This document shows positions 10,425-64,000 of a stretch of DNA of 64,000 nt, piece after piece. The stretch comes from an uncultured Actinomycetota bacterium. Its GTDB lineage: Bacteria; Actinomycetota; UBA4738; HRBIN12. Under the pieces are notes generated by a model. It was not told the origin of the DNA. It saw nothing but the letters and a program-made list of their open reading frames with translations, and made no database searches. Where the stretch lies: contig CAVVAK010000009.1 in assembly GCA_963746335.1 (NCBI GenBank), forward strand, positions 244,157-308,156. The letters are read 5' to 3'. How positions within the stretch are numbered: the first letter of the stretch is position 1; each line of letters opens with the position of its first letter. Both the position numbers and the translations under genes were made by a program.

Positions 10425-10425
10425 G

Positions 10426-15043: not shown

Positions 15044-15138
15044 CTCGCCTCCATCGGGCCGCGGTCCTGGGCGGGTTTCGGCGCCCATGCTAGGCGGGCT
15101 CCGCGAGCCGGGCAACGCGGTCACTCGTGGCCCGGAAC

Positions 15139-38079: not shown

Positions 38080-39162
38080 ATGAAACCCTTCCGGGTCGAC
38101 CTGCGCTCCGACACGGTCACGAAGCCGTCCGAGGCGATGCGCCGAGCGATGGCCGAGGCCGAGGTCGGCGACGACTGGTACGACGACGACCCGACCGTGA
38201 ACCTCCTGCAGGAACGCTGTGCGGAGGCCCTCGGCAAGGAGGCCGGCGCGTTCGTCCCGACGGGCACCATGGCGAACCAGATCGGGCTGCGCCTGCACTT
38301 CAAGGGTCCCGGCCATCTGGTCGCGGCGGCCGCCGGACTCCACGTGACGAGCGTGGAGGTGATGACCGCGGCGGCCCTCGCCGGCATCGCGTACCGGACC
38401 GTCGATGCAGGACCGCGCGGCTGGATCGACGCCGACCAGGCCGCCCAACTCCTCGAACCCGACGAGTTCTACGACGTCGAGGTCGTGGATCTCTTGTCGG
38501 TGGAGAACACCGTCGGCGGGGCCGGCGGGCGGGTCATGCCGCTCGAGGAGCTCCGTGCCGTTCGGAAGGTGGCGAACGACGCCGCCGTCCCGATCCACCT
38601 CGACGGGGCACGGATCTTCAACGCGGCTGCCGCTGCCGAGGTCGACGCCTCCGACATCGCCGCGGAGGTCGACACCGTGATGTTCTGCCTCTCGAAGGGG
38701 CTGGGCGCACCGATCGGCTCGGTCCTGTGCGGGCCGGCGGAGATGGCGCGTGAAGCTCGCCGACTGAAGATCCTGTACGGCGGCGCGTGGCGGCAGGCGG
38801 GGATCGTGGCGGCGGGAGGACTGATCGCGCTCGAAGAAGGCCCGAAGCGCCTCCACGAAGACCACGAGCGTGCTCGCCACCTGGCCGAGGGCGTCGCCGA
38901 AGCCCTCCCCGGGTCCGTGGATCTCGAACAGGTCGAAACGAACATGGTGTTCGTCGACACCGAAGCCGTGGGGTTACCGATGCTCGACACGATCGAACGG
39001 CTGAGGGCTCTCGGGGTCGGCGTGACCCACTCCGGCGGCGCGATCCGGATGGTCACGCATCGCGACATCGACGACGCCGGCATCGGGGTCGCGCTGGACG
39101 CCTGGCGGGAGCTCGCTGCCGAAACGACGAGGGCCAAGAACGAGGAAGGGCAGGGCTCCTGA
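38080..39162 (+). CDS. ltaE: low-specificity L-threonine aldolase (PLP-dependent)
   Basis: ATG at 38080 (track ORF 37945 trimmed). It has DLRSDTVTKPS, GDDWYDDDPTVN, PTGTMANQ and FCLSKGLGAP (PLP Lys). Confidence 0.88.
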   Translation: MKPFRVDLRSDTVTKPSEAMRRAMAEAEVGDDWYDDDPTVNLLQERCAEALGKEAGAFVPTGTMANQIGLRLHFKGPGHLVAAAAGLHVTSVEVMTAAALAGIAYRTVDAGPRGWIDADQAAQLLEPDEFYDVEVVDLLSVENTVGGAGGRVMPLEELRAVRKVANDAAVPIHLDGARIFNAAAAAEVDASDIAAEVDTVMFCLSKGLGAPIGSVLCGPAEMAREARRLKILYGGAWRQAGIVAAGGLIALEEGPKRLHEDHERARHLAEGVAEALPGSVDLEQVETNMVFVDTEAVGLPMLDTIERLRALGVGVTHSGGAIRMVTHRDIDDAGIGVALDAWRELAAETTRAKNEEGQGS

Positions 39163-39785
39163 TGGCGCTGTTCTCGAAGAACTATCCGCCCGAGATCGCG
39201 GGACGCATCCCACCGGGCCAGCGGCTCGTGAAGACCTGGCCGGTCCTGCACTACGGGCCGATCCCGACGTTCGACGGGCAGAACTGGGACCTGGAGCTCA
39301 CGGGGCTGGTCGAGAACCCGGTCACGCTCTCGTATCAGGAGCTCCGCGCGCTGCCGAACGTGGACGTCCCCGCGGACATGCATTGCGTGACCGGCTGGAC
39401 GACGCTCGACAACACGTGGCACGGCGTGTCGTTCCGGACCCTCAAGGAGCTCGTGAAGCCGACGCCCGAAGCCAAGTGGGTCATCACCCACTGCGAGTAC
39501 GGCTACACGTCGAACCTCTCGCTCCAGGCGATGGACGACGATGACGTCCTCGTCGCATGGGCGAACGGGGGACAGGACCTCGAGCCGGAGCACGGCTGGC
39601 CGCTCCGGCTCGTGGTGCCCAAGCGCTACGCGTGGAAGAGCGCGAAGTGGCTCACGGGCCTGGAGTTCGTGGACAAGAACAAGCGGGGGTTCTGGGAGGT
39701 GCGCGGCTACCACACGCACGCCGAGCCGTTCGGGGAGGAGCGCTACTCCTATCAGGAGGGCCCGAGGGCGGAGCTCGAGCCCTAA
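39162..39785 (+). CDS. sulfite-oxidase-fold molybdopterin-binding domain protein (YedY/MsrP-like catalytic domain only)
   Basis: ATG at 39162 overlaps the ltaE stop (TGATG). It has HCVTGWT, GWPLRLVVP..YAWKSAKW, and is 207 aa. Confidence 0.75.
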   Translation: MALFSKNYPPEIAGRIPPGQRLVKTWPVLHYGPIPTFDGQNWDLELTGLVENPVTLSYQELRALPNVDVPADMHCVTGWTTLDNTWHGVSFRTLKELVKPTPEAKWVITHCEYGYTSNLSLQAMDDDDVLVAWANGGQDLEPEHGWPLRLVVPKRYAWKSAKWLTGLEFVDKNKRGFWEVRGYHTHAEPFGEERYSYQEGPRAELEP

Positions 39786-46059: not shown

Positions 46060-46980
46060 GTGCGGCTCCGCGTCGGCGACGAGGTCGCATCCGCGCTCGC
46101 GGGTCGAGGCGCGTTGGTCGGTGTGGAGACGAGCGTGATCGGCCAGGGGCTGCCTCACCCTCGCAACGTCGAGTGCCTCGCTCGGATGACGGACGCGATC
46201 AGAGGCGCGGGAGCGATCCCGGCGTGGGTCGGCGTGCTCGGAGGGGAGGTGGTGGTCGGGCTCTCCGACGAGGAGCTCGGCCCGTTCACCGAGCCCGGCA
46301 GGGCGGACAAGGTGGCGCGCCGCGACCTCCCGGGGGCGTGCGCGCGCGGCCGCCTCGGCGCGACCACGGTGTCCGCGACGATCTGGGCCGCCGCGCGCGC
46401 CGGGATCGACGTGAGTGCGACCGGTGGCATCGGGGGTGTGCATGCGGGCGACCATCTCGACGTCAGCGCCGACCTCGTCGAGCTCTCGCGCACCCGTGGG
46501 TTGTTGGTCTGCAGCGGTCCGAAGTCGATCGTCGACCCGGTGGCGACGTCGGAGCGCCTCGAGGAGCTCGGCGTGACCATGGTCGGCTACGGGGTGAGCC
46601 GCCTGCCCTTCTTCCTGACGCGGGAAGCACCGATCGACCTGGAGCATCGCGTCGATAGCCCCGACGAAGCAGCCGCGATCCTCGCCGCAGCGATCGAACT
46701 GGACACCCGCTCAACGATCCTCCTCTGCAACCCGATCGTCCCCGCGATGGCGATGGATGCCGATGAGGTCGCGGGCGCCACACGGCGCGCGGGGGAGCGA
46801 GCCGCGACGGAGGGCATCCGGGGGAGGGCGAGCACGCCGTACCTGCTCACCGTCATCGCCGAGCTGACCGAAGGGCGCTCGATGGAGGCGAATCTCGCTC
46901 TACTTGCTTCGAACGCCGCGCTCGCCGGTCAGGTGGCGGCCGCCGCTGCCGGCCTCGGCCGATCCGACCGTCGTGGGTGA
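46060..46980 (+). CDS. psuG: pseudouridine-5'-phosphate glycosidase
   Basis: GTG at 46060 (track ORF 45814 trimmed). It has VALETSVI-like GVETSVIGQGLPHP, TTVSATI and ATGGIGGVH. Confidence 0.85.
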   Translation: MRLRVGDEVASALAGRGALVGVETSVIGQGLPHPRNVECLARMTDAIRGAGAIPAWVGVLGGEVVVGLSDEELGPFTEPGRADKVARRDLPGACARGRLGATTVSATIWAAARAGIDVSATGGIGGVHAGDHLDVSADLVELSRTRGLLVCSGPKSIVDPVATSERLEELGVTMVGYGVSRLPFFLTREAPIDLEHRVDSPDEAAAILAAAIELDTRSTILLCNPIVPAMAMDADEVAGATRRAGERAATEGIRGRASTPYLLTVIAELTEGRSMEANLALLASNAALAGQVAAAAAGLGRSDRRG

Positions 46981-48852
46981 GGAAGCGTCGAGGTCCTCCC
47001 CGCGACCCTGGGCTCTCTTCCAGGAACCGACCGCGAACGCGAGCCACCCCAGGGTTCCGATCGCGAGGGCGGTGATCACCCCGCCGCCACGCCCCAGCGG
47101 GAAGCCCAACCGGCCTGCGACGAGGCCGCCGATGGACAGCACCGCGATCCCCATCGCCGGTGAGAGACAGACGGCGGCGAACGCGGGGAGCCCGGTCATG
47201 AACAGGGTCCACCCGAGGCCGATGAGCAGCGCCGTCACCACCGAGACGGCCGTCAAGCGGATCAGCTCGCTGCTCTCGCTCGGCTCGATCGGTGCGACGG
47301 TCAACCGAGCGGGAGGCTTGGGGCCCGCGAGCAACGTGACCCCGGGTCCGAGGGCGGTGCCCTTGAGCGGTGCCTGGTCGCTGTACCCGGCGAGGTGCAC
47401 GGCGATCGTGTCCGGAGGATAGCGGGAGGCGAGCCTCCGCCGGAACTCGCGGGTGTCCCCGAAGAAGTCCACTCGCCAGGTCTTCACGGACAGGAAGCGT
47501 TCTACGGGCAGGGTGACCTGGAGGGCCCTGAGGGGACGGAATATCCCCGGCCGCATCGGCACGACCACTCGCGTCCCCGGGGGGATCCGCTCGAGGTACG
47601 CGGCCACGGTCGAGGCCTGCCCCAGCTGCGCCGGGGTGAATCCGGCCCGTTGATCCGACCACGTGTCGGCACCGGCCATCGAGAGCCATGAGGCTGCCGC
47701 GAGCACCAACACGGCGCTCGCGATCGCGCCCGCGGCTCCCCACGCGGCTCCCCCTGGACGCGACGCTCTCGCGTCGGTCCACAGACGGGTCGCCCCCGCC
47801 CCGAGCACGATGAGCGCGGGGACGCCGAGCGCGAACGGGACGATGCGATGCGGGATCGTCATGTCCAAGACCTTCCACGCGAGCAGGCCGGCGGGAGCCG
47901 CGAGGGCCCACATCGCCAATGGGACGGCCGTGCGCCTCGACGCCGACTTCCCGGAGAGCAGCATGATCGCCGCCCCGGCGGCAGCCAGCGGGATCGTGAT
48001 CGCCAGCATCATCTCCGGCAGGCGCTGCGCGATCTTGACGGCCGCGTCCTGCTTGGTCGACGGGACCCCGTGGGGCAGTTCGGGGGACGCGAGGAGCGCG
48101 AGGGCGCCGACCACCACGCCGAGCCCGACGACGACGAGGAGGCGCGCCGGGTGCGGTGTTCGTCCTTCGCTCGATGGTCCGCGACTCCGCTCGAACACGA
48201 ACACGCCGGCCGCGTAGGCCACGAGCAGCGCGGCGAGGCCGATCGCGAAGAGCCAATGCGCGATCGCCGCGGCGCCGAGCAGGAGGACGAGCGCTGCTGC
48301 CCCTTTGTGACCGGTGCCCACGCGCACCGCGAGGGCGATCGCAGCGACCGCGAACACGTCGAGGAGGAGGTTCGAGGCGTACCCGATCGCGGTGAGCGCT
48401 ACGAACGGCGAGCCGGCCAGTCCCACGCCCACGGCGACGGCGACCCATCGCCGTTCACCGGCTACGCCCGCGGCCAGGGCCGCCCCCGCGGAACCGATCG
48501 CGATCGCGAACAACGCGGGCCAGATCCGTGCCAGATCGAGGGGCGTGCCGCCGCTGATATCGCGAAGCACGCTGGTCACGATGGGATGGGCGGGCCGTTC
48601 TCCGAACGGATCGAGCTCGTTCAGGCCGAGGTCGTGCACGATCCGCGACCGGATGATGTACACCGAGGTGTCGACACCGTGCGGGAATCGATCAGGATCC
48701 TCGATGAACGGACGGAGGTAGATCCAGCCGAGGACCACGGCCAGTGCCAGGGCGAGGATCGTCGCCCAGCCGACCCTGACGATCGTCTCGGCTCGTACCG
48801 GGGGCGTCCGTGCCGCGTGTCGCCCGTGCGGCTCGGACATCACCGCAGCCAA
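46900..48852 (-). CDS. large polytopic membrane protein, putative lipid-carrier-dependent (GT-C-like) glycosyltransferase; paralogue of 55648..57618
   Basis: 650 aa with more than 10 TM helices, a first-loop PHGVDTSVY block, a soluble domain and extra C-terminal helices. The start overlaps the GT2 stop by 13 nt. Confidence 0.7.
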   Translation of the reverse strand: MAAVMSEPHGRHAARTPPVRAETIVRVGWATILALALAVVLGWIYLRPFIEDPDRFPHGVDTSVYIIRSRIVHDLGLNELDPFGERPAHPIVTSVLRDISGGTPLDLARIWPALFAIAIGSAGAALAAGVAGERRWVAVAVGVGLAGSPFVALTAIGYASNLLLDVFAVAAIALAVRVGTGHKGAAALVLLLGAAAIAHWLFAIGLAALLVAYAAGVFVFERSRGPSSEGRTPHPARLLVVVGLGVVVGALALLASPELPHGVPSTKQDAAVKIAQRLPEMMLAITIPLAAAGAAIMLLSGKSASRRTAVPLAMWALAAPAGLLAWKVLDMTIPHRIVPFALGVPALIVLGAGATRLWTDARASRPGGAAWGAAGAIASAVLVLAAASWLSMAGADTWSDQRAGFTPAQLGQASTVAAYLERIPPGTRVVVPMRPGIFRPLRALQVTLPVERFLSVKTWRVDFFGDTREFRRRLASRYPPDTIAVHLAGYSDQAPLKGTALGPGVTLLAGPKPPARLTVAPIEPSESSELIRLTAVSVVTALLIGLGWTLFMTGLPAFAAVCLSPAMGIAVLSIGGLVAGRLGFPLGRGGGVITALAIGTLGWLAFAVGSWKRAQGRGEDLDASSPTTVGSAEAGSGGRHLTGERGVRSK

Positions 48853-49883
48853 GTCTGGATGATCACTTTGAGGAAGTTCCAGCCGTAGCGGAACGACTTG
48901 GGCTTCTTCGACTCCCCACCGGCTCGCGCGAGGAAGGTGACCGGCACCTCGACCACGCGGGCCCGGTGTCGGAGCGCCTCGATCAAGATCTCGCTCGTCC
49001 AGAACTGATCCTGCTTCAGGACCACCTTCTCCAGGAGTTCGGTCTTGGCCGCTCGATATCCCGACGACGGATCCGTGATCCGCTGTCCCGTCAGGATCGT
49101 GATGATCCGCGAGAAGAGGTGCACGCCGAGATGGCGGATGAGGCTCTCACGCTCGAAGGTGCCGAGCAGGCGCGATCCGTTGACGTAGTCGGCCTCGCCG
49201 GCGAGGATCGGCGCGATCACGATCGGGATCTCCTCCGGCAGGTGCTGTCCGTCCGAGTCCAGCGTGACGATCACCTCCGCACCGAGGCGGAGCGCGATCT
49301 CGTAGCCGACGCGCAGAGCCAGCCCTCCCCCCCGCCGGATCGGCAGTTCGGCCACGAACGCCCCGGCCTCACGGGCCACGGCCGCGGTGCGATCGGTGGA
49401 TCCGTCGCTCACGACCACCGGCACGACGTGATGGCCCTCGACCATCGCCGGGATCTGCTTGACCACGGCTGCGACGTTCTCTGCTTCGTTGAACGCGGGC
49501 GAGATCGTGACCAGCCGAGGGCCGTCCGGGAGACTTCGCGCCCGATCCCAATCGAACCGTTCCTGGCCGAGCGCCTCGACGAGCAGCCGGATGCTGCGCT
49601 CGTTCGTATCGGCCGAGGTCTGTGCCCGCAGGTAGAGGAAGAAGAGCACCCCGACGGCGACCAGCAGGGCGAAGATCACGCCGTCGGTTCCCCGTTCGAA
49701 GTCGAAGGTTCGCAGGAGCGGGTCGAACAGAGGCGGATAGATCGCGAGCGCGAACACGGAGGTGCACAGTGCGAACAAGATGATCAGGTTCAGCCGGCTG
49801 ATCTGACGTCGGTCGTATCCGCGGACGACCATCACGAACAGCCCGACCGCCGCGAGACCGGCGAGGATCCTGATCGCAGGCAT
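48840..49883 (-). CDS. family-2 glycosyltransferase of polyprenyl-phosphate-sugar synthase type with a fused N-terminal 3-4 helix membrane module (DUF2304-like)
   Basis: 347 aa. The N-terminal 100 aa are hydrophobic. These are followed by VTISPAFNEAENV, VVVSDGSTD, LDSDGQH and DPSSGYRA GT2/Dpm1-like blocks. It starts 3 nt after the sqdB stop. Confidence 0.8.
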   Translation of the reverse strand: MPAIRILAGLAAVGLFVMVVRGYDRRQISRLNLIILFALCTSVFALAIYPPLFDPLLRTFDFERGTDGVIFALLVAVGVLFFLYLRAQTSADTNERSIRLLVEALGQERFDWDRARSLPDGPRLVTISPAFNEAENVAAVVKQIPAMVEGHHVVPVVVSDGSTDRTAAVAREAGAFVAELPIRRGGGLALRVGYEIALRLGAEVIVTLDSDGQHLPEEIPIVIAPILAGEADYVNGSRLLGTFERESLIRHLGVHLFSRIITILTGQRITDPSSGYRAAKTELLEKVVLKQDQFWTSEILIEALRHRARVVEVPVTFLARAGGESKKPKSFRYGWNFLKVIIQTWLR

Positions 49884-49886
49884 GTG

Positions 49887-51062
49887 CTAGCTCGAGGAAG
49901 CCTCGAGCCCTGGCCGCCACCGATCCCGGGGCAGGATGGCGTCCGCGATCACGCGATCCTTGTGACGCTCGATCACGCCGAACATCGACTCGACGAGCGT
50001 CTCCGAAAGGAAATGTGGCTGGAGTCCGAGGTCCATGAGCTTCGTGTGCTTCGCGTTGTAGTAGTGCTCTTCCAGCTCGATCCGCGGATTCTCGATCGGT
50101 TCGATCCCGATGGTGAGTCCGTGTTCCTTGCCCGCTCGTTGCACGATCTCCGCGAGCTCCATCACGGAGAATTGCTCGGTGAATTGATTGAACACGCGGA
50201 ACTCGCCCCGATCGGCAGGGTGCAGCACCGCGAGCTCCACGCACTGCAAGGTGTCCACGATGTTGAGGTAGCCGCGTGTCTGGCCGCCCTTCCCGTAGAC
50301 CGTGAGCGGATGGCCGATCATCGCTTGCACGCAGAAGCGGTTGAGCGCCGTTCCGAAGACGTCGTCGTAGTCGAAGCGGGTTGCGAGACGCTCGTCGAGC
50401 CTGGTCTCGTCCGTCTCGATCCCGTACACGACGCCCTGGTTCAGGTCCGTCGCGCGGGTCCCCCACATGCGGCACGCGAAGTGGATGTTGTTGGAGTCGT
50501 GCACCTTCGAGAGGTGATAGATGCTGCCCGGGAGCTTGGGATACAGGATCGTCTCTTTCCGCCCGTTGTGCTCGACGTCGAGATAGCCCTCCTCGATGTC
50601 GATGTTCGGCGTCCCGTACTCGCCCATCGTGCCGAGCTTCACGAGATGGGAATCGGGCGCGAACTCGCGCATCGCCCACAAGACGTTCAGGGTGTTGACG
50701 ACGTTGTTCTGTTGGGTGAACACGGCATGGTCCCGATCACGCATCGAGTAGGGCGCGGAGGGCATCTCGCCGTAGTGGACGATCGCCTCCGGTCGGAAGT
50801 CGCGGAACAGATCCGCGGTGAGGTCCCACTCCACGAGGTCACCCTCGGTGACCGTGATCTCCTTGCCCGAGATCTCGTTCCAGACCGCTGCCCGGTCCGG
50901 CAACGACGGGAGGATGGGGACCAGGGTGTCGGTGCCCACCTCCTCGTGCGCCCTGCGCCGTAGGTAGTTGTCGACGACGTGCACCTCGTGACCGCGATCC
51001 GAGAAGCGCATCGCGGTCGGCCATCCGAGGTATCCGTCGCCACCGAGGATCAATATCCGCAT
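49887..51062 (-). CDS. sqdB: UDP-sulfoquinovose synthase
   Basis: 391 aa. It has long blocks that match plant SQD1 as I remember it: GGDGYLGW, HLVKLGTMGEYGTPNIDIEEGY, YHLSKVHDS, RATDLNQGVVYG, FGTALNRFCVQA, GHPLTVYGKGGQTRGYL, FRVFNQFTEQFSV and EEHYYNAKHTKL. Confidence 0.92.
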   Translation of the reverse strand: MRILILGGDGYLGWPTAMRFSDRGHEVHVVDNYLRRRAHEEVGTDTLVPILPSLPDRAAVWNEISGKEITVTEGDLVEWDLTADLFRDFRPEAIVHYGEMPSAPYSMRDRDHAVFTQQNNVVNTLNVLWAMREFAPDSHLVKLGTMGEYGTPNIDIEEGYLDVEHNGRKETILYPKLPGSIYHLSKVHDSNNIHFACRMWGTRATDLNQGVVYGIETDETRLDERLATRFDYDDVFGTALNRFCVQAMIGHPLTVYGKGGQTRGYLNIVDTLQCVELAVLHPADRGEFRVFNQFTEQFSVMELAEIVQRAGKEHGLTIGIEPIENPRIELEEHYYNAKHTKLMDLGLQPHFLSETLVESMFGVIERHKDRVIADAILPRDRWRPGLEASSS

Positions 51063-51198
51063 GGAGCGGTCCTTTCGCAGTCAGGGATCGTCGAAGGTCT
51101 GGGATCGCCGGATTCTACAATGCGGGATCGAACGGACTCGCAGCTGCGAGCGCGCACGACCCTCCGCTCCGGCCCCCTTGGTAGCATCCCGCCCCGCG

Positions 51199-52648
51199 AT
51201 GCCCATCCTCCGAGTCCTCCGGAACACCACGCTCGCGCTCACCCTGGTCCTGGCGGTGCTCGCCGCCTGTACGGGATCTCCCGAGCCACCCGGCCCGGGG
51301 CCCGATCGTCAGGACCCCACGCCCACGTCGCTGACGGAGGACGAGCTGCGACAGGTCGAGGGCGTGCCGAGGTTCCTGGTCGACCGGCTCCAGAGGCACC
51401 TCGCCGAAGAGCTCTCGCGGCCCGATCAGATCACGCTGGCACGCCGGAAGATCGAACACATCGTGTTCATCGTGAAAGAGAACCGCACGTTCGACCACAT
51501 GTTCGGTCGCTTCCCCGGAGCGGACGGTGTGACGTCGGGGTGGACGTGTGACGGTCGGCGGGTGCCGCTCCGACCCGCCGGAGACCGCGTCCCGGAGATC
51601 GACCACGGATTCGTCGAAGGTCTCGTCGCGATCAACGGGGGCCGCATGGACTGCTTCGATCGCCTGGGCGGAGGTGAGGACCTCGACTCCTACCTGACGT
51701 ACGACCGGGAGGGGATCCCGAACTACTGGGCCCTGGCGGACCATTACACCCTGGCGGATCGATTCTTCAGCTCGATCTACGGCCCGACGGGGGTCGAGCA
51801 CATGTGGGTGATCGCCTCGCAATCCGACCGGTTCGTGGACATGGAACGCAAAGGACAGTACGGGGTCCGAGAGCCGCGGGAGCGGTGTCTGGACCCGGCC
51901 GAACGCGCGTACTCGTTCAAGGTGCTCACCGAGGAGGAGGAGGATGACGCCTTCCGGCTGGAAGAGATCCCCGCGATCGTCCCGCTCACGACGAAGTATT
52001 GGACGGAGCGGTGGCCGTGCAGCGACATCAAGATCCTGCCGGACCTCCTGGAGGAGCGGGACATCTCCTGGAGGTACTACCAGGGCGGCCACTCACAGAT
52101 GAAGGTGATGGATGGGATCAGGCACGTTCGGTTCGGACCGATGTGGGAGAAGGTCGTCGACAACGAGGATTTCCTTCCCGACCTCGAGAACGCCGAGCTT
52201 CCCCAGGTCTCCTGGCTCGATCCCTCCCGACGGACTCAACGACCACCCTCGTGGTGGCAGGGCGAGCATGTGCGAGGGAGAGAACTGGACCGTGGAGATC
52301 CTGAACGCGCTCCAGCAGAGCCCGTACTGGGACGAGACGGCGGTCGTCCTCACGTGGGACGACTTCGGCGGGTTCTACGATCACGTCGCCCCGCCACACG
52401 TCGACCTGTACGGGCTCGGGCCCCGCGTCCCCACGATCGTCATCTCGCCGTGGGCACGACCCGGCTACGTCGATAGCCGGACCTACGAGTTCTCCTCCGT
52501 GCTGAAGTTCATCGAGACGGTGTTCGATCTCCCCGCGTTGACCGAGCGGGATCGCCGGTCGAGCGACATGCTCGACGCCTTCGACTTCCTCCAGCGCCCG
52601 TTGGACCCGTTGATCCTCGAGCCACGCGAGTGTCCTGAAGCGGAGTGA
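51199..52648 (+). pseudogene. phospholipase C / acid phosphatase (phosphoesterase) family lipoprotein gene interrupted by a +1 frameshift near 52219
   Basis: It has a lipobox (LAVLAAC) and IVKENRTFDHMFG. Frame 1 carries LPQVSWL up to 52218. The family sequence then continues in frame 2 as [10 protein letters not shown]...[15 protein letters not shown] to 52648, while frame 1 becomes Arg-rich junk. Confidence 0.8.
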
Positions 52649-52681: not shown

Positions 52682-54154
52682 ATGACCGCGCCGACAGCGG
52701 CCGACCCGGCGGGACCGTCGGAGGGATCACCTTTCCCGCCTCGAGAGCGGTCGCTCGCGTGGCGACTCCTGATCGTCGTCGGGGTCGCGTACGTGGTCGC
52801 GCAGGTCGCGTTGCTCTCGCTTGCCCGGCCCCCCGGCTGGGACGAAGCCGTCTACCTGTCCCAGGTGACACCGGGGACCGACGCGCTGGAGTTCCTCGCG
52901 TGGCGAGCGAGAGGGATCACGCTCCTGGTGGCTCCCGTGACCTGGTTGGGCGGATCGGTCCGAGACGTCCGGATCTTCCTGATGGTCGCCTCGGCGCTCA
53001 CGATGACGGCGACGTTCCGGTTGTGGATCCCGTTGATCGGCCTGGCGGCGCCGGCTGCCGCCGTGGCGTTCTCCTTCTCGTGGCTGGGGCTCCTCAGCGG
53101 GACCGAGGTGATGCCGAACCTGTGGGCGGCGCTGCCCGGGCTCGCGACGGCCGGGCTGATCGCCCGGCGCCTCGGAGGTGGGAAGACATGGCATGCGGTG
53201 CTCGCCTCCGGGACGCTCGCCGCCACAGCGCTCGTCCGGCCGACGGAAGCCACGGTGGTTGCCGGTGCGATAGCCCTCTACATCGTGGTGTGCAGGAGGA
53301 CGGAGTGGCGCCTGCTGTTCGCGATCGGACTCGGTCTCGTGCTCGGCTGGCTTCCCTGGTTCGTCGAGATGTCGGCACGGTTCGGCGGCCCGGTGGACGC
53401 CCTTCGCGAGGCCGCCACGGGCCATTTCGCGACCGCTCCCGTCGCGCAGAACGTCGTCAATCACCTCGCGTTCACGGATGGGAGACCCCCGGATTCACCT
53501 GTTCCTCTCGGAGGGGTGCTCTGGTGGGTCCTCCTCGCGATCCTCACGATCGTGGCGATCGCGGGAGCGATGAGGCCGACGGAGCGAGCCGCGGCGATCC
53601 TGGCCGGCTTCGGGGCGTCCGCGCTGGCGACGGAATACCTCGTGTTCGCCCCGGGGATGGCACCCCGGTTCTTGCTCCCCGCATACGCGTTCGCCTCGGT
53701 CCCGGCCGCGATCGGCATCCTCACGCTGCTCCGGGGCGGCGCGATCGTTCCCCGGGTTGCCGGCGCCGCGATCCTCATCCTCGTGCTCCCGTGGGCGATC
53801 TGGCAAGGCACCGTTGCGCGTCGGTTCCAGGAAGGGAGAACCGTCTCCACCGTCGCGTTCCGTGACATCGGGCTGACGCTTCGGGAGCTGGCGGGTGGCC
53901 GTCCCTGTTCGTTCGTGAGTCCGAACGGCTACCCGTCGATCGCGCTCGCCTCGGGGTGCGACGGATCTGCCCTCATCCGGCCCGGAGGCCCGACCGCTTC
54001 AGAGCTGGAGGAGCTCCGGAGCGCCGAGGAGGAGTTGTTCGTGATCCTCAAGCGGGAGGCACGCCTGTCTTCACCTCTCGGCTCGCTGACTCCCGTGCCG
54101 GTCGCGGGTCCTGGCAAGACATGGTTCGTCTATCACGTGTCTGGGTCGACCTGA
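52682..54154 (+). CDS. polytopic membrane protein, putative GT-C-type glycosyltransferase (tandem copy 1)
   Basis: 490 aa with PPGWDEAVYLSQV in the first loop (the DE..Y motif of ArnT/PMT-like enzymes), about 11 TM helices and a C-terminal soluble domain with two Cys. Confidence 0.75.
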   Translation: MTAPTAADPAGPSEGSPFPPRERSLAWRLLIVVGVAYVVAQVALLSLARPPGWDEAVYLSQVTPGTDALEFLAWRARGITLLVAPVTWLGGSVRDVRIFLMVASALTMTATFRLWIPLIGLAAPAAAVAFSFSWLGLLSGTEVMPNLWAALPGLATAGLIARRLGGGKTWHAVLASGTLAATALVRPTEATVVAGAIALYIVVCRRTEWRLLFAIGLGLVLGWLPWFVEMSARFGGPVDALREAATGHFATAPVAQNVVNHLAFTDGRPPDSPVPLGGVLWWVLLAILTIVAIAGAMRPTERAAAILAGFGASALATEYLVFAPGMAPRFLLPAYAFASVPAAIGILTLLRGGAIVPRVAGAAILILVLPWAIWQGTVARRFQEGRTVSTVAFRDIGLTLRELAGGRPCSFVSPNGYPSIALASGCDGSALIRPGGPTASELEELRSAEEELFVILKREARLSSPLGSLTPVPVAGPGKTWFVYHVSGST

Positions 54155-55618
54155 CGAGGCGATACGATGAGATCGGCGGATCTTGGGACATCTGAGGGCG
54201 CCCGGGAGCGAGCGCTCGCGTGGCGCCTCCTGATCGCCGTCGGCATCGGGTACCTGATCGTCCAGCTCGCCACCGTCCCAACCTCACGCCCACCCGGCTG
54301 GGACGAGTCGATCTACCTCTCGCAGGTGATGCCGGGCGTGGACCCGATGTTCTTCCTGGCTTCGCGCGCCCGGGGGATCACCTTCCTGGTCGCTCCGGTC
54401 GCGTGGCTGGGAGGGTCGGTGCGGGACGTACGGCTGTTCCTGATGGTCGCGTCCGCCGTCGCGATGACCGTGACGTTCCGGTTGTGGATCCCGTTGGTCG
54501 GCCTGGCAGCTCCCCTCGCCGCCCTCCTCTTCTGCGGCACGTGGCAGAGTCTGGTCAACGGATCCGAGGTGATGCCGAACCTCTGGGCGGCGATCCTCGG
54601 GCTCGCGACGGCCGGGCTGACCGCGCGGGCACTCGAGAGCGGGACCACATCGCATGCCGTCCTTGCCGCGGCGGCGCTGGGAGCGACGGCGCTCGTCCGT
54701 CCGACCGACGCCACGGTGGTTGCCGCCGCACTCGGTCTCTACGTGCTCTCGTGCAGGAGGTCCCACTGGCGCCTGCTCTTCGTGCTCGGCGCCGGTCTGA
54801 TCGTCGGGTGGTTGCCATGGTTCATCGAGATGTCCGTTCGGTTCGGTGGGCCGGTCGAGGCTCTCCGAGAGGCCGCGGCGGCCGGGCGCGTCATGACGAC
54901 CTCCGTCGGGCACAACCTGTTCGTCCATCTGGCCGCCACGGGAGGGGAGCTCACTCCCACTCGCGTTCCGGTCCCGGGAGCGATCTCGTGGGGGCTCCTC
55001 GCGATCCTCGCGGGTGTCGGGATCGTGAGAGCGGTGAGGCCGACGGAACGGGCGGTCGCGATCCTCGCCTCGATCGGGGCGCTTGCGCTCGGAGCCGCAT
55101 ACGTCATCTTCGTGTGGGGGACGTCTCCCCGCTTCTTCCTCCCGGTGTACGCGTTCGCGTCGCTTCCGGCCGCGGTCGGCCTGGTCGCGCTCCTCCGCGC
55201 AACGACCTGGTCTCGGGTCGCCGGCGCGGGGCTGCTCGCGCTCGTGATCCCCTGGGCGATCTGGCAGGGCGCGATGCCGAACCGCTTCCTGGAGCGGAGG
55301 ATGACGTCGACCGTCGCCCTCCGTGACATCGGACTGAGGCTGCGCGAGCTGGCCGATCACCGCCCCTGTTCGTTCATGAGCCCGCACGGATACCCGATGA
55401 TCGAGTTCGCCGCCGGGTGCCACGGGGCCGATCTCCTGCGACCTCGCGGCCCCACGGCCTCAGAGCTGGCGGAGTTCGGGGCCGATGGGCGAGAAGTCTT
55501 CGTCATCCTCAAGCGGGAAGCCCGGCCCGCCTCGCCTCTCGGCTCGATCGTTCCGGTGCCGGTTCCCGGACCGGGGAGAACGTGGTTGATCTACCACGTC
55601 TCCGGAACGACCGACTGA
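52700..55618. repeat. diverged tandem duplication (two units of about 1.46 kb)
   Basis: The DNA of 52.73-54.15 kb aligns with 54.21-55.61 kb, including identical runs such as GACGTTCCGGTTGTGGATCCCGTT. Even the antisense shadow ORFs 52852..53253 and 54313..54714 mirror each other. Confidence 0.85.
54167..55618 (+). CDS. polytopic membrane protein, putative GT-C-type glycosyltransferase (tandem copy 2)
   Basis: 483 aa, collinear with the previous gene over the full length (PPGWDESIYLSQV, TFRLWIPL, EVMPNLWAA, LVRPT.ATVVA, GWLPWF.EMS.RFGGPV.ALREAA). Confidence 0.75.
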   Translation: MRSADLGTSEGARERALAWRLLIAVGIGYLIVQLATVPTSRPPGWDESIYLSQVMPGVDPMFFLASRARGITFLVAPVAWLGGSVRDVRLFLMVASAVAMTVTFRLWIPLVGLAAPLAALLFCGTWQSLVNGSEVMPNLWAAILGLATAGLTARALESGTTSHAVLAAAALGATALVRPTDATVVAAALGLYVLSCRRSHWRLLFVLGAGLIVGWLPWFIEMSVRFGGPVEALREAAAAGRVMTTSVGHNLFVHLAATGGELTPTRVPVPGAISWGLLAILAGVGIVRAVRPTERAVAILASIGALALGAAYVIFVWGTSPRFFLPVYAFASLPAAVGLVALLRATTWSRVAGAGLLALVIPWAIWQGAMPNRFLERRMTSTVALRDIGLRLRELADHRPCSFMSPHGYPMIEFAAGCHGADLLRPRGPTASELAEFGADGREVFVILKREARPASPLGSIVPVPVPGPGRTWLIYHVSGTTD

Positions 55619-55647: not shown

Positions 55648-57618
55648 TCAGCGATCGTCCTTCGGCCCGAGCGGCGACCGAAGAGGGCGATCCCTCCGAA
55701 CGAGCGCGAACAAGCCGCCGATCGCAGCGACCGAGCTGAGGAGGAGCACGCCGCCACCGCCTCCCAGAGGGACCCCTGCCAGTCCCGAGACCGTGCCCAC
55801 GAGGAGCACGCCGGCGAGGCCGAGGCTCGGAGCGAGCGCGAAACGAACATCCAGGGGTGCCGGAACGAATGCGAGGGCCCATCCGATGCCGGCGACGAGC
55901 AGCGCGACGAATGCCGTCACGAGATCTCGGATCAGTCCGCCCGCGGGCGGCGGTGAGATCGGTCCGATCACGGGGCCCGAGGTCTCGCTCGGCGACGCAC
56001 CACGATGACCGTCGCCGAGGAGGAACACGCCGTCCGCGATCTCCTCATGGGCGGGATCGGAGGCAACCGAAGCGGGGTCGTCCAGGAACGGGCGGAGCGC
56101 GAGCGCGACGGCTCCCGGTGATCGCATCCGCGCGACCGCGTCCGCGGAGATCAGCGCGTTCTTCAGTTCGGCGCCCTCGAGCCCCTGCGGCGGCTCGGTT
56201 CCGTCGACGGCGTCCGCCCGCTCGAACAAGTCCTCCGGTGTTCCCATGAACACGCCCGTTCGTGGGATCAGTCCGACGGATGCCAGCATCCGAACGCGGC
56301 GGAAGGCCCGACCCGGGTCGTCGGATACCACGATCACGAGTGCCGAGGCATCCACCTGCTTCGCATACGCCACCGCGGATCGGATCGGAGCCAGCTCGTC
56401 GGGGCTGATCGAGGGCCGGGAGCTGTCGATCAGGTCCTCGGAGACAGCTGCCAACCCGGCGAGGGAGGCGATCACGAGCGCCGCCGCGACCGCGATCAGC
56501 GGGATGCGCCTCCTGCCTCCGGTCCGCGAAGCGGCCGCCACGATCGTGGTGAGCAGGGCCGCCGTGAGCAGCGGAAGGGGGAACGTGATCCCGAGGAAAC
56601 GCATGAGCGGGAGATCCGCTCCGGCGACGTAGAGCGCGGCGGCGAGCGAAGGTGGGAGGAGCCATGCAGCCATGAGAAGGAGCCCATGACGGCGACGCTC
56701 GACCTTCCTGCCGATCCCCACTGCGAGGGTCACGAGACCGACCGCTGCAACCGAGAGCGTGAGCCGGTAGTGGGGGAAGAGCCGTCTCACGTTGCCATGG
56801 AAATGCCTGCCCGTCCCCGTGTCGGGGATGTTCCCGCCCGGCGTCGCGAGCAGGGGCAGGGCTCCCATCGCGAGTCCTCCTCCCACCGCGGCGGACACCC
56901 GCCCTGCCGGCGTCGTCGACCACGGAGATCCGGTGCGACGTCGCGAGATCGACTCCGGTAGGAGGAACAGGGCGAACACGAGTCCGATCGCGGCGAACAC
57001 CCCTCCGACGGCCCAATGCATCAGGATCGCGGCCGCGAGGAGGAACGCCGTCGTCACGCCCGAACCTGGACCGGCCGCGACCAAGAGCAGCCCGGCAGCG
57101 GCGGCGACGATCGGTCCGTCGGCGAGGGCATTGTCGAGGTAGCTCTTCGTCGTCAACGCGAACGGGACGGACATCACCACCGCGATCGCGTAGATCGGCG
57201 CCGCCCAGCGAGGTTCACCGAGCGCTCGGGCGAATGCCCATCCCGAGGACGCGAGCAGGGCGGCCGCGAGCGCGGGGATGATGAACATGAGCCGCCACGG
57301 TGTGACGCCGACACCGGACAGCACGGAAGCCAACACCGGGAGCCCCACGCGGTCGGGATTGATCTGGAAATCGTGAGGGGTCGATTCGAAGAGCGATGTG
57401 AGGTCTGTGGCAGCGACCAGCTTCGCCCTCCACAGGTGTGCCGGCGTATCGACGCCGGGCGGCACGACGAGACCACGATCGATGGGAGCGCGCAGGAAGA
57501 GGCCGGCTCCGAGGAGCACCGAGACGAACAAGCCGGCGCCGAGACCCACCCCTCTGTTCAACCGATCGCGACGCGACGCCGGTGTGCCTTCGGTTCCTCG
57601 TCGGGGAGGGTCAACCAT
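55648..57618 (-). CDS. large polytopic membrane protein, paralogue of 46900..48852
   Basis: 656 aa with the same layout as 46900..48852: a PPGVDTPAH first-loop block, a HW block, a soluble domain and C-terminal helices. The start overlaps the upstream gene by 8 nt. Confidence 0.7.
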   Translation of the reverse strand: MVDPPRRGTEGTPASRRDRLNRGVGLGAGLFVSVLLGAGLFLRAPIDRGLVVPPGVDTPAHLWRAKLVAATDLTSLFESTPHDFQINPDRVGLPVLASVLSGVGVTPWRLMFIIPALAAALLASSGWAFARALGEPRWAAPIYAIAVVMSVPFALTTKSYLDNALADGPIVAAAAGLLLVAAGPGSGVTTAFLLAAAILMHWAVGGVFAAIGLVFALFLLPESISRRRTGSPWSTTPAGRVSAAVGGGLAMGALPLLATPGGNIPDTGTGRHFHGNVRRLFPHYRLTLSVAAVGLVTLAVGIGRKVERRRHGLLLMAAWLLPPSLAAALYVAGADLPLMRFLGITFPLPLLTAALLTTIVAAASRTGGRRRIPLIAVAAALVIASLAGLAAVSEDLIDSSRPSISPDELAPIRSAVAYAKQVDASALVIVVSDDPGRAFRRVRMLASVGLIPRTGVFMGTPEDLFERADAVDGTEPPQGLEGAELKNALISADAVARMRSPGAVALALRPFLDDPASVASDPAHEEIADGVFLLGDGHRGASPSETSGPVIGPISPPPAGGLIRDLVTAFVALLVAGIGWALAFVPAPLDVRFALAPSLGLAGVLLVGTVSGLAGVPLGGGGGVLLLSSVAAIGGLFALVRRDRPLRSPLGPKDDR

Positions 57619-59233
57619 CGACGGGTCCTGAGAGCACCCAGACGAGGCCCTTGGGGCTCACCTGGACGACGCGGAGGGCTTCCTTGAGGCGGGGGATGCT
57701 GAACGGCGCGCACTCCTTGGATCGCCGGAACACGATCACCTGGCGCGGCCGATCCCTGAGGCTGCGGCCGAGCTCGTCGAGCTCGGAGTCGAACGTCGGG
57801 TTGGGGAGAACGCGTCCCCCTCGACACGATCGGGGGAGGCTGTGTACCGCCCGATCGAGGAGGAACCACGCGACGTTGGGACGGGTCGCGAAGAGCACGG
57901 TTCCTGGAGCGATCGGCCCGTCCAGTGTCTGGGTGAGCTCGTCGTATTCGGCCGCGGAACCGATCCGGGTTCCGTAGATCGCCGGCATCGAGACGGAGGC
58001 CGACGAGATCGCGAGGGCGGCGAGGGAGGCGGCCGCCACCCCGACCGCCCCCCGGAGCGCGGGTCCGCGAGGAGCTGCTCTCCAGATCGCATCACCGAGG
58101 GCGACGACGGCGATCACGAGCGGCGCGAAGGCGGGACCGAGGAGACGATCATTGAACGGGGGAGCGCGAGTGGAGAAGGCGTTCGCCGCCGCGATGAAGG
58201 CGAAGTGGACCGCCGCGAACGCGACGCACACCGTGACGACCGTCGGCACGTGAAGCATGCCGGGGAACCTGGAGTGGAACGCGGACCAGATCAAAAGGAT
58301 CAGCGCGGTGAGGGATGCGAGGGCGGCGAGCAGGATGAGCGCGTCGTGTGCCAAGCCGGTCGGACGATCCGGGATGAACCACCTCCCGATCCGTTGGAAC
58401 CCGCCCACCACGTCGGCCAGGGTCAGATCGTGCACCAGCTGGTTGTCACCGGTGAGGGTGCCCGACACATCCAGGTTCCTGAGCGACCAGAGCACGCTGA
58501 GGGGCAGCGAGATGCCTACGAACAGCCCCACCGCGCGCGCTCGACCCAGCACTCGGCGACCCGGCCAGAGCACGAGGAGCAGGCACGAGGTGGCGAAGAC
58601 GGACAATCCGGAGTACCTCGTGAGCATGGCGACGCTGGTCAGCGCGGCCGCCAGGATCAACGGCCCGGTCCGTCGCGTCGCGAGATGACGTGCGAGCGAT
58701 GCGAGTATCAGGACGATCAGCGGGAAGAAGAGCGTCTCGCTCCAGATGTGGGCGTACACCATCACCGTCGGTCGCCCGAGTTGCACGAGCAGGACCGCGA
58801 GCGCCGCAGGCAACGCTCGTTCCCGAGCATCTTCGGCGCTGGAGAGGGCGATCGCGATCGCGGATCCGAACGCGCAGAGGAGGACCACGTTCTGCCAGAT
58901 CACCCAGTCGAACACCCGCACATCCAGGACGCGAGGGATCGTCAGGAGCAGGGGATACAGCGGGGGGAACAGGGTCACCGGCGAGCCGACGTCTCCGAAG
59001 GGATAGGTCCAGCCCTCCCCCCGAGCCAGGCTGTTCGCCGCGCCGAGGTACGTGAACGAGTCGTTGCTCGCATGGACGCCTTCTCGGGAAAGGAAGAGAA
59101 GGAGGATCGGACCAACGAGCGACGACACCACCACCGCGCCGACCACCAACGCGCGACGAGGCCTCACGTGCTGCCGTCCTCTGACATCACGGCGAGTCGA
59201 CCTGATCTCCCGGTCGATGGACGTGGAGGCCAT
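57611..59233 (-). CDS. polytopic membrane protein, ArnT/PMT-like GT-C glycosyltransferase candidate
   Basis: 540 aa with the first-loop block NDSFTYLGAANSLARGEGW, about 12 TM helices and a C-terminal soluble domain. Confidence 0.7.
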   Translation of the reverse strand: MASTSIDREIRSTRRDVRGRQHVRPRRALVVGAVVVSSLVGPILLLFLSREGVHASNDSFTYLGAANSLARGEGWTYPFGDVGSPVTLFPPLYPLLLTIPRVLDVRVFDWVIWQNVVLLCAFGSAIAIALSSAEDARERALPAALAVLLVQLGRPTVMVYAHIWSETLFFPLIVLILASLARHLATRRTGPLILAAALTSVAMLTRYSGLSVFATSCLLLVLWPGRRVLGRARAVGLFVGISLPLSVLWSLRNLDVSGTLTGDNQLVHDLTLADVVGGFQRIGRWFIPDRPTGLAHDALILLAALASLTALILLIWSAFHSRFPGMLHVPTVVTVCVAFAAVHFAFIAAANAFSTRAPPFNDRLLGPAFAPLVIAVVALGDAIWRAAPRGPALRGAVGVAAASLAALAISSASVSMPAIYGTRIGSAAEYDELTQTLDGPIAPGTVLFATRPNVAWFLLDRAVHSLPRSCRGGRVLPNPTFDSELDELGRSLRDRPRQVIVFRRSKECAPFSIPRLKEALRVVQVSPKGLVWVLSGPVDG

Positions 59234-62898: not shown

Positions 62899-64000
62899 GT
62901 CAGGGTGGCCAGGGCCTCGAGCACACGATCGACCTCGGCAGGGGTGTGGTAGTGGCAGAAGCCGATCCGGACGGCGCCCCCCGAGTCGAAGAGCCCCAGC
63001 CGGACCATGATCTCCCGCGCGTAGTAGTCGCCGTCCCACACGAAGATCCCCCGCGCCGCGAGGCGCTTCGCCGTCTGTGCCGGATGCTCGTCCTGGACCC
63101 GGATCGCGAACGTCGGCGTTCTCTCGTCCAGCCGAGCCCGATCGGAGATGCCCCAGAGCCGCACACCGGGGAGCCCGTCGATCCCGTCGAGGAAGCGATC
63201 GGCGAGGGTCCGCTCGTGGGTCGCGATCGCGTCGTAGGAGGTCGCGAGACGCTCCCGACGAGGCATGCCGGCCGCGCCCTCGATACCCGCGAGATACTCC
63301 ACGGCGGCCACCAGCCCCGCCAGGCCCTCGTGGTTCTGGGTGCCGGTTTCCCAGCGTTCCGGAGCTCCGTCGGACGCGGGGACCAGCTTGTACGGTGTCC
63401 ACGTTTCGAGGAGGTGGCGCCGCGCCGCGAGGATGCCGAGATGTGGCCCGAAGAACTTGTAGGGAGAGCAGACGAGGAGGTCGGCGCCGAGTCCGTGCAG
63501 ATCCGGGAGCCGGTGCTGTGTCAGATGCACGGCATCGACCGCCACGACGGCGCCGACCTCTTTGGCGAGTGCCACGAGGTCGGCCGCCGGTGGGATCGTG
63601 CCCACCGCGTTGGACGCGAGCGTGAACGCGACGAGCTTCGTCCGCGGCGACAGTGCGGCCGCGAACGAATCGATGTCGATCGTCACGTCGTCCTCGCGGA
63701 CGTCCACCCACCGGACGGTCGCGCCGGCGTCGGCGGCCGCCAGCACCCACGGGCGGACGTTCGCATCGTGATCCAGCCTGGTCACCACGAGCTCGTCGCC
63801 GGGCTGCAGCACCTTCGAGAAGGATCGGGACAGGTGGAAGAGAAGTGTCGTCGCGTTGGGGCCGAACACGATCTCGCCGGGGTCCGCGCCGGTGAGGTCG
63901 GCGGCCGCGCGTCGAGCCTCCGCGATGACGTCGTCCGTCTCCTCGCTCGTCGCGAACACGCCGTGCGTGTTGCTCATCCCTCGTCGGTAATGACCCGAGA
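62886..64000 (-). CDS. class-V aminotransferase / cysteine-desulfurase-like PLP enzyme (5' end beyond the window)
   Basis: NTHGVFATSEE, VVTRLDHDANV, AVDAVH and CSPYKFFGPHLG. The reading frame stays open upstream of the track ATG (..SGHYRRG-MSNTHG) to the window edge, consistent with the family N-terminus being missing. Confidence 0.8.
   Translation of the reverse strand, partial: SGHYRRGMSNTHGVFATSEETDDVIAEARRAAADLTGADPGEIVFGPNATTLLFHLSRSFSKVLQPGDELVVTRLDHDANVRPWVLAAADAGATVRWVDVREDDVTIDIDSFAAALSPRTKLVAFTLASNAVGTIPPAADLVALAKEVGAVVAVDAVHLTQHRLPDLHGLGADLLVCSPYKFFGPHLGILAARRHLLETWTPYKLVPASDGAPERWETGTQNHEGLAGLVAAVEYLAGIEGAAGMPRRERLATSYDAIATHERTLADRFLDGIDGLPGVRLWGISDRARLDERTPTFAIRVQDEHPAQTAKRLAARGIFVWDGDYYAREIMVRLGLFDSGGAVRIGFCHYHTPAEVDRVLEALATLTQGS

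Follow-up and report, generated by a model that had tools for sequence, protein, structure and literature searches.

A predicted polyprenyl-phosphate route for sulfoquinovose encoded by an sqdB, DUF2304-GT2 and GT-C operon in an uncultured actinobacterium

Sulfoquinovose (SQ) has been treated as a product of the sulfoquinovosyl diacylglycerol (SQDG) lipids of phototrophs, with the N-glycans of Sulfolobus as the best-known exception, and a 2026 review still presents its biosynthesis in bacteria as SqdB-SqdX. Here we examined a 64-kb stretch of DNA from an uncultured Actinomycetota bacterium (contig CAVVAK010000009.1), referred to below as the window, in which we identified a minus-strand operon of three genes: sqdB, for a UDP-sulfoquinovose (UDP-SQ) synthase, a gene for a fusion of DUF2304 with a family 2 glycosyltransferase (GT2), and a gene for a polytopic membrane protein with the GT-C fold. 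The reading that we favour, with moderate confidence in the model as a whole, is that a three-component-type system loads SQ on polyprenyl phosphate and transfers it outside the membrane. The first enzyme is shared with the SQDG systems, that is SqdB/SqdX of cyanobacteria and plants and SqdB/D/C/A of Rhodobacter and Sinorhizobium. Their second enzyme, however, is a retaining GT4 or GT8 acting on diacylglycerol or glycerol, whereas here an inverting Dpm1-type GT2 with DUF2304, and then a GT-C, is predicted.

Several described systems follow the scheme that the operon suggests. In Streptococcus pyogenes, GacI, GacJ and GacL (with GacK) place N-acetylglucosamine (GlcNAc) on the group A carbohydrate by the same combination of a GT2, a DUF2304 protein and an outside-acting GT-C (GacL). 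GacJ, a separate DUF2304 protein, forms a complex with GacI, the undecaprenyl-phosphate (Und-P) GlcNAc transferase, whose Km for Und-P drops from 18.7 to 1.1 uM with GacJ; Rv3632, another DUF2304 protein, stimulates PpgS, and fusions of GacJ-like with GacI-like proteins are known (bioRxiv 10.1101/180810). The window's locus differs from the Gac system in that SQ is predicted instead of GlcNAc, DUF2304 is fused N-terminally, a Wzx-type flippase such as GacK is lacking, and the GT-C falls in no described sequence family. The same actinobacterial trio of synthase, DUF2304 protein and GT-C is found in Mycobacterium tuberculosis, where PpgS (Rv3631), Rv3632 and Rv3779, the last being the GT-C transfer step, decorate arabinogalactan with galactosamine (GalN). 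Unlike that trio, the window has a GT2 that is no PpgS orthologue, a different nucleotide sugar is expected, and the sugar-nucleotide synthase is encoded within the same operon.

The GtrA/GtrB/Gtr* systems, and the GT136 pentofuranose system with them, combine a polyprenyl-phosphate-sugar synthase, export of the lipid donor and a GT-C acting after polymerisation (PMC11127046). They share this logic with the proposed SQ system, which differs in having no GtrA/SMR-, MATE- or Wzx-type flippase gene nearby, several GT-Cs per synthase, and an anionic sulfonated sugar. ArnC and ArnT, which bring 4-amino-4-deoxy-L-arabinose (L-Ara4N) to lipid A, also load a charged sugar on Und-P and then transfer it outside; ArnC was the second-best solved relative of the GT2 and ArnT (5f15) the best GT-C match by structure, but sequence identity is low, the NCBIfam score for ArnC is far under its cut-off, and sugar, charge and acceptor differ.

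UDP-SQ is likewise spent on a surface glycoconjugate in Sulfolobus acidocaldarius, where Agl3 (with Agl1) serves the N-glycan. A gene for a membrane-bound glycosyltransferase adjoins agl3, and the enzyme is thought to use UDP-SQ directly (PMC4388408). The beta linkage of SQ in that glycan, which is assembled on dolichol pyrophosphate, fits a direct inverting transfer from UDP-SQ inside the cell, whereas the pathway proposed here would have two inverting steps, a monophosphate carrier and an alpha linkage formed outside the cell. The three-component logic is known (PMC11127046), and what would be new is the sugar and at least one GT-C sequence family. Full-text literature searches returned no bacterial pathway joining SQ with a polyprenyl, undecaprenyl or decaprenyl carrier, a GT-C, the cell wall or DUF2304. 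They also returned no paper that would contradict the first-pass annotation of this DNA, made from the letters alone, which took SQ on a polyprenyl-monophosphate carrier to be unreported in bacteria.

The operon and its presumed promoter region comprise the following features:

49887..51062, minus strand: sqdB, UDP-sulfoquinovose synthase, 391 amino acids (aa), assigned by similarity to SQD1 and conserved catalytic residues
48840..49883, minus strand: DUF2304 + GT2 fusion, predicted polyprenyl-phosphate sulfoquinovosyltransferase, 347 aa, assigned by Pfam and PDB relatives
49874..49569, minus strand: module of DUF2304 with three transmembrane (TM) helices, residues 4-105 of the fusion
49505..49023, minus strand: GT-A domain of the fusion (Glycos_transf_2), residues 127-287
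46900..48840, minus strand: membrane glycosyltransferase with the GT-C fold, representing a new sequence family, 646 aa if started at ATG (alternative TTG start at 48852)
51063..51198 (136 nucleotides, nt), no strand: region between sqdB and the divergent phosphoesterase gene, presumably with the promoter; the phosphoesterase start at 51199 was placed by homology

The protein encoded by the first gene showed 59% identity over 383 aa to Arabidopsis SQD1 (structures 1qrr/1i24, E 1e-160). It keeps the N-terminal glycine-rich NAD motif (G7GDGY), T145-M-G and Y182-H183-L-S-K186, with the catalytic T/Y/H/K, and so fits the short-chain dehydrogenase/reductase (SDR) signature [ST]MG...Yx3K that was given for SQD1 and Agl3 (PMC8987622). 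The match to NCBIfam NF041015, which covers 1-383 of its 384 positions, reached 480.4 bits and stayed under the 575-bit equivalog cut-off; the assignment as UDP-sulfoquinovose synthase was kept because the SQD1 match is much stronger than this shortfall. By homology, the enzyme is expected to make UDP-SQ from UDP-glucose and sulfite, and the sqdB orthologue recognised in the first-pass annotation is borne out.

The three genes correspond to minus-strand open reading frames (ORFs) at 51062..49887 (391 aa), 49883..48840 (347 aa) and 48852..46900 (650 aa from TTG). The sqdB stop codon TAG is followed by CAC and then by the ATG of the GT2 gene, leaving a 3-nt spacer. A 13-nt overlap between the GT2 gene and a gene for a 650-aa protein had been noted before; this stands if the TTG at 48852 is the start, but not with the in-frame ATG at 48840, which gives a 1-nt overlap with the GT2 stop (TGATG) and a product of 646 aa. 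The database copy of the membrane protein (646 aa) and its homologues begin at the ATG. With either start, therefore, the membrane-protein gene would be translationally coupled to the GT2 gene. The three genes are packed as one translational unit. Co-translation is implied by the gap of 3 nt on one side of the GT2 gene and the overlap of 1 or 13 nt on the other, and the evidence for co-transcription is this same spacing. A scan with the sigma-70 consensus found no promoter site either within the operon or in 51063..51198, and a terminator scan returned one terminator-like site, which is the chance level.

In the 347-aa fusion, Pfam detected both DUF2304 (E 2.3e-9, 37.9 bits with a cut-off of 25.5) and Glycos_transf_2 (E 3.4e-15), so that the fused N-terminal DUF2304-like module of the first-pass annotation is confirmed. 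The closest solved relatives were the dolichol-phosphate-mannose synthase (DPMS) of P. furiosus (5mlz, E 2.5e-16) and, second, ArnC (E 3e-9), and with PpgS also among the relatives the enzyme was rightly described as a Dpm1/PpgS-like GT2 lying 3 nt after the sqdB stop. The motifs DxDxQ, SG[YF] and GESK line up with DPMS and ArnC, DSDGQH standing opposite DADLQH/N. Across 72 sqdB-linked members of the GT2 family D209, D211 and Q213 are invariant, and the invariant residues of these 72 proteins yielded no sulfonate-binding residue. Charged residues in the three N-terminal helices are distributed in agreement with an N-out, C-in topology, which would place the GT-A domain in the cytoplasm.

Scores against the NCBIfam models for named enzymes were 97.7 bits for AglJ (cut-off 325), 89 for the haloarchaeal DolP-hexose transferase (375), 82.7 for PpgS (370) and 38.2 for ArnC (529). 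The GT2 was tried as an orthologue of PpgS, ArnC or AglJ and rejected in each case, these scores being far under the equivalog cut-offs. It forms a separate clade within the polyprenyl/dolichyl-phosphate transferase class, as expected for a different sugar, and because it scores below every named-enzyme cut-off its lipid acceptor was assigned by family resemblance.

The third protein showed no significant match to a Pfam or NCBIfam family, DUF6541 at E 0.0048 being below cut-off; a sequence search of the PDB returned an unrelated match at E 0.078 for the single sequence and nothing for a 30-sequence profile. Its AlphaFold2 model, built from the 30-sequence alignment, reached a predicted local distance difference test (pLDDT) of 84 and a predicted TM-score (pTM) of 0.86. 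The top 18 Foldseek matches in the PDB were all GT-C enzymes at probability 1.00, with TM-scores of 0.22-0.52; among them were ArnT (5f15, the best), AglB, STT3, AftA, AftD, PglB, ALG9 and ALG12. In the model, the first outside loop, which connects TM1 (16-47) with TM2 (100-126), contains two short helices (58-71 and 84-96). D57, in the motif PHGVD about ten residues past TM1, is shared by the paralogue encoded in the window and by at least 90% of the 30 homologues. Its position roughly matches that of the catalytic Asp in ArnT and PglB, which points to a possible catalytic role. The modelled fold thus identifies the gene 3 product as a GT-C glycosyltransferase, and sequence comparison sets it apart as a new GT-C family. 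By analogy with the mycobacterial trio, the multi-pass protein had been likened to a GT-C transferase, and both the Foldseek result and the near-invariant Asp agree with this.

We then turned to the conservation of the linkage in 80 loci, one per species-level genome, each encoding a relative of the window's GT2; more than 2,500 such relatives are present in the protein collection. Gene content was scored by targeted tblastn, HMM (hidden Markov model) searches and a hydrophobicity count. These methods took the place of single-linkage clustering applied to the stop-to-stop ORFs of these loci, which chained meaninglessly because spurious frames are common in high-GC DNA. With one contig cut, 79 loci could be assessed for the sqdB-GT2 linkage, and in all 79 sqdB lies within 3.3 kb of the GT2 gene, directly upstream on the same strand in 72 and divergent in 7. 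GT2 identity spans 41-96% across the linked loci, which come from Acidobacteria, Chloroflexia and Solirubrobacterales among other taxa. The pairing of sqdB with the GT2 is more than chance.

A member of the gene 3 family was detected within 7 kb of sqdB-GT2 in 24 of the 80 loci, and the orthologues of gene 3 at 56% identity or more stand directly after sqdB-GT2 without exception (10/10). Other GT-C genes occur in comparable places: in a Solirubrobacterales locus (L075) two PMT/PMT_2 genes, PMT being a GT-C family, lie between divergent sqdB and GT2 genes, and in an Acidobacteria locus (L071) a PMT_2 gene is found downstream and a DUF6077 membrane protein upstream. In locus L025, about four matches to the family HMM directly follow sqdB-GT2 (6961..15044); their ORFs overlap, so they represent at least three tandem paralogues.

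A second recurrent partner of sqdB is a gene for a cysteine-desulfurase-like enzyme. Among the 69 assessable loci, 48 have it upstream of sqdB and on the sqdB strand; the two genes are direct neighbours in 30 of these and stand 0.5-5 kb apart in the remaining 18. Where 2-5 kb separate them (14 loci), the interval holds a polytopic gene, mostly of the gene 3 family. Neither this usual upstream partner nor the larger GT-C island described below was part of the first-pass annotation.

In the window, the operon is part of an island of about 17 kb, which adds three GT-C genes and two GT-C candidates to that of the operon and also contains a sulfatase gene and a phosphoesterase gene with a frameshift:

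51199..52648, plus strand: phosphoesterase of the phospholipase C (PLC)/acid-phosphatase family, predicted lipoprotein (LAAC lipobox), Pfam Phosphoesterase E 1.6e-26
52682..54154, plus strand: 490-aa polytopic membrane protein, possible GT-C on weak evidence, with a PPGWDE motif after TM1
54167..55618, plus strand: 483-aa tandem paralogue of the 490-aa protein, sub-cut-off Pfam matches to Glyco_transf_22 (E 0.004) and PMT_2 (E 0.011)
55648..57618, minus strand: 656-aa paralogue of the gene 3 GT-C protein, family HMM E 9.5e-62 over the full length
57611..59233, minus strand: 540-aa divergent PMT_2-like GT-C protein, assigned by family transitivity
59290..60753, plus strand: membrane-anchored sulfatase with a CCPSR formylglycine motif, Pfam Sulfatase E 7e-41 and SGSH_C
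60793..62898, plus strand: 701-aa GT-C-fold membrane protein related to DUF6541, assigned by AlphaFold2 and Foldseek
62886..64000, minus strand: cysteine-desulfurase-like pyridoxal-phosphate (PLP) protein of the TIGR01976 (VC1184) family, truncated where the window ends

The 656-aa paralogue showed 28% identity to the gene 3 protein by BLASTP (E 9e-13) and retains a PPGVD motif. For the 540-aa protein, 4157 relatives were found in the representative library; when it was scanned with 44 of them (45 in total), 29 matched Pfam PMT_2 and 13 matched PMT, and D58 and Y62 are invariant in the family. The model of the 701-aa protein (pLDDT 89.5, pTM 0.93) had GT-C structures for all of its top 24 Foldseek matches (DPY19, AglB, STT3, PglB, ArnT), and HHalign aligned its family with the gene 3 family (probability 88.6%, E 2.7e-6), which indicates that the two are distantly related. 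The 490- and 483-aa proteins are 63% identical to each other; the Pfam matches of the former are to GT22 and sub-threshold, and an HHalign comparison of their family with two GT-C families was not significant, so we refer to both as possible GT-Cs. One predicted lipid-donor synthase is therefore found amid at least four, perhaps six, GT-C genes. In mycobacterial arabinan a single decaprenyl-phosphate donor serves many GT-C enzymes, to which we liken this arrangement.

The phosphoesterase is frameshifted near 52175-52224, as its intact homologue in locus L081 (481 aa) aligns in two frames, and the split gene is either a pseudogene or an assembly indel. The desulfurase-like protein matched TIGR01976 with 423 bits, above the cut-off of 352 bits. 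The block of about 12 kb upstream of sqdB is missing from more distant relatives; in locus L082, for example, the order is desulfurase-like gene, sqdB and GT2, with the desulfurase-like gene at 7484..8722. The window's sulfatase stayed under the cut-offs of the NCBIfam arylsulfatase and choline-sulfatase models. Genes of the sulfatase/alkaline-phosphatase superfamily recur beside sqdB/DUF2304-GT2 in L081 (3435..4691), L004 (4406..5656) and L096 (7622..11748), thus in bacteria and in a haloarchaeon, and their tie to an SQ system is unexplained, because sulfatases do not cleave the C-S bond of SQ.

Plasmid records were searched at the protein level for the same pairing, and haloarchaea were among the carriers. 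On pNVE414 of Natrinema versiforme (L094, 10001..14201) we identified an operon of an sqdB-like gene, two SDR genes and a DUF2304+GT2 gene; Pfam bore out the fusion, which shares 37% identity with the window's protein. A plasmid of Haladaptatus pallidirubidus (L096, 4353..18236) carries an sqdB-like gene with two oxidoreductases and, 6 kb from this group, a DUF2304-GT2 gene directly followed by two annotated GT39 genes; alkaline-phosphatase-family and sulfatase-like genes lie between the two groups. The presence of two additional SDR genes hints at a modified sulfosugar in the archaea.

Other actinobacterial plasmids pair sqdB differently. On plasmid pPA12743CP of Pseudonocardia autotrophica (L093, 1970..11476), an sqdB 60% identical to that of the window is divergent from a gene for a GT2/GT21-like transferase of 416 aa, with genes for a MurJ-family flippase and a PLP enzyme of the cysteine-synthase family nearby; the arrangement suggests that this cultured actinomycete has an SQ system of another kind. 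On a Rhodococcus plasmid, sqdB is again paired with other genes. Since these pairings differ, actinobacterial sqdB serves more than one kind of transferase, of which the DUF2304-GT2 is one specific kind.

In the pathway that we propose, SqdB would supply UDP-SQ, a step for which homology provides the evidence, and the fusion, anchored by its three N-terminal helices, would move SQ from UDP-alpha-SQ to polyprenyl monophosphate at the inner face of the membrane. As Dpm1-type GT2 enzymes invert, the product would be beta-SQ-phosphoryl-polyprenol. This lipid-linked SQ would be flipped across the membrane, a step for which the island has no flippase gene, and the coupled GT-C protein, assigned by its fold and with putative donor and acceptor, would transfer SQ to an acceptor at the outer face, which may be a wall polysaccharide, a lipoglycan or a protein. 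GT-C enzymes invert too, so that this second inversion would leave an alpha linkage. The GT-Cs of 656, 540 and 701 aa, perhaps with those of 490 and 483 aa, may use the same donor elsewhere or build the acceptor. More speculatively, the desulfurase-like enzyme could supply the sulfur, for instance as sulfite from cysteine sulfinate, a release that is known for CsdA-type enzymes. The sulfite source of UDP-SQ synthases in vivo has been described as unknown (PMC4388408), and the linked desulfurase-like gene bears on this question.

Several points weigh against this pathway. The GT2 is far below the equivalog cut-offs of every named polyprenyl-phosphate transferase, and UDP-SQ is its presumed donor, as sugar specificity cannot be read from the sequence. 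The island encodes no flippase: no small ORF with four TM helices and no MOP or MATE gene was detected within 46.9-64 kb, and the other transporter genes of the window (an amino-acid permease, a VIT-family transporter and an MFS protein) are at least 15 kb from the island. An SQDG synthase could exist elsewhere in the genome, the search for GT4 and GT8 having covered the 64-kb window. The two gene 3 paralogues of locus L092 have no sqdB in their vicinity, hence this GT-C family is not always linked to SQ. In roughly half of the 80 loci, sqdB-GT2 is accompanied by no large polytopic gene up to 7 kb away, and there the pair could make an end product. Moreover, the bacterial examples are metagenome-assembled genomes throughout and the source is uncultured. 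As regards the loci with no GT-C, the GT-C gene of three-component systems is often unlinked from the synthase gene (CsbB and YfhO, for example), so they do not contradict the model, although room is left for a lipid as the end product.

An ordinary SQDG operon was considered and rejected, the glycosyltransferase class beside sqdB being the wrong one. Of the 47 ORFs called by codon composition in the window and four further ones, 46 were scanned (five were not), and none matched GT4 or GT8, the SQDG synthase classes, in line with the earlier observation that no SQDG synthase follows sqdB. Another kind of lipid end product deserves more attention. SqdB and the GT2 may together make a sulfoquinovosyl membrane lipid, either a beta-SQ-diacylglycerol-type glycolipid or SQ-P-polyprenol as candidates, serving as an anionic lipid under phosphate limitation, with the GT-C genes as neighbours in another role. 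We regard this as unlikely, though as the foremost of the alternatives. The loci with an sqdB-GT2 pair and no polytopic gene speak for it, as does the phosphoesterase lipoprotein gene, which both the window and its nearest relatives have in divergent orientation to sqdB and which would suit phosphate starvation. Furthermore, GT2 enzymes that glycosylate diacylglycerol exist (cyanobacterial MgdA), and other actinomycetes pair sqdB with a glycolipid-synthase-type GT2/GT21-like enzyme, as on the Pseudonocardia plasmid. However, the GT2 at hand resembles Dpm1, ArnC, AglJ and PpgS and not the lipid synthases of the GT21 or MgdA type; it has the DUF2304 module, which is associated with Und-P enzymes, and in the window its gene is translationally coupled to the GT-C gene. 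At least three unrelated GT-C families recur beside it in distant taxa, and a product linked to polyprenyl phosphate would spare no phosphate.

Alternatively, the GT2 may well make polyprenyl-P-SQ while the adjacent GT-Cs use other donors, such as polyprenyl-P-mannose or polyprenyl-P-arabinose, and the true SQ transferase is encoded elsewhere or is just one of the island's GT-Cs. GT-C families are not specific for one donor, the adjacent GT-C gene is lacking at many sqdB-GT2 loci, the L092 paralogues stand away from any sqdB, and the island's four to six GT-C-like genes, which belong to three families or more, exceed what one side-chain sugar would seem to need. On the other side stand the overlap of the GT-C gene start with the GT2 stop and the position kept by every close orthologue of gene 3; in addition, the inserts between the desulfurase-like gene and sqdB are polytopic genes, of the gene 3 GT-C family in about 12 of 18 loci, and independent GT-C families occupy the same position in Solirubrobacterales and a haloarchaeon. 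We place this explanation just behind the membrane-lipid one, and consider it improbable. Highly improbable, in our opinion, is that the linkage misleads altogether, the GT2 using UDP-glucose or UDP-GlcNAc and an unlinked SQDG synthase consuming UDP-SQ. The sugar specificity of Dpm1-type GT2 enzymes is indeed unpredictable from sequence, and 64 kb of this genome are visible. Yet sqdB stands beside the GT2 clade in each assessable locus, over the full range of identities and in several phyla, as well as on haloarchaeal plasmids, which is hard to explain unless the two enzymes share a pathway, and the window has no GT4 or GT8 gene.

We therefore retain the transfer of SQ from a polyprenyl-phosphate donor outside the membrane as the preferred reading, and the sequence-testable parts of the earlier interpretation, all of which came out as predicted, support it. 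A broader proposal can be offered tentatively, as a possibility on which we would not yet rely: in a broad group of uncultured soil Actinomycetota, and in parallel in some haloarchaea, a polyprenyl- or dolichyl-P-SQ donor would be used by new GT-Cs to decorate or build, outside the membrane, a sulfonated, anionic glycoconjugate of the envelope, with a dedicated desulfurase-like enzyme supplying sulfur. On this proposal SQ would be the first sulfosugar carried by a lipid monophosphate, and the surface would gain negative charge without spending phosphate, much as when teichuronic acid replaces teichoic acid; environmental SQ would also have an origin apart from photosynthesis.

If the preferred reading is true, three-component glycosylation and polyprenyl-phosphate donor chemistry would extend to a sulfonated sugar, and the envelope of a large actinobacterial lineage that is so far uncultured would be predicted to have a new anionic component. 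Bacteria that degrade SQ, of which there are many, would have a source of it in soil that does not depend on photosynthesis. Cultured haloarchaea in which the gene trio is also present (Haladaptatus pallidirubidus YIM 93656 and Natrinema versiforme BOL5-4) are possible experimental models.

The closest relatives of the window are metagenome-assembled genomes labelled uncultured Actinomycetota. The downstream neighbour of the GT-C gene is a convergent gene of the pseudouridine-5'-phosphate glycosidase family (Pfam Indigoidine_A), and the 3' ends of the two genes overlap by 81 nt (46900..46980), as they also do in the gene calls of L081. Beyond it lie a PfkB-kinase, thiamine genes and a PknB-type kinase, none of which looks related to the operon, and positions 1-40 kb hold genes of one-carbon, sarcosine/glycine, glutamine and formate metabolism. 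A short plus-strand ORF (about 39162..39785), some 7 kb from the operon, is at the place of a 207-aa Oxidored_molyb (sulfite-oxidase-family) gene in L081. The G+C content of the window is 65-72%, with a dip to 0.645 at 50001..52000, which covers sqdB and its upstream region, between values of 0.68-0.72 on either side.

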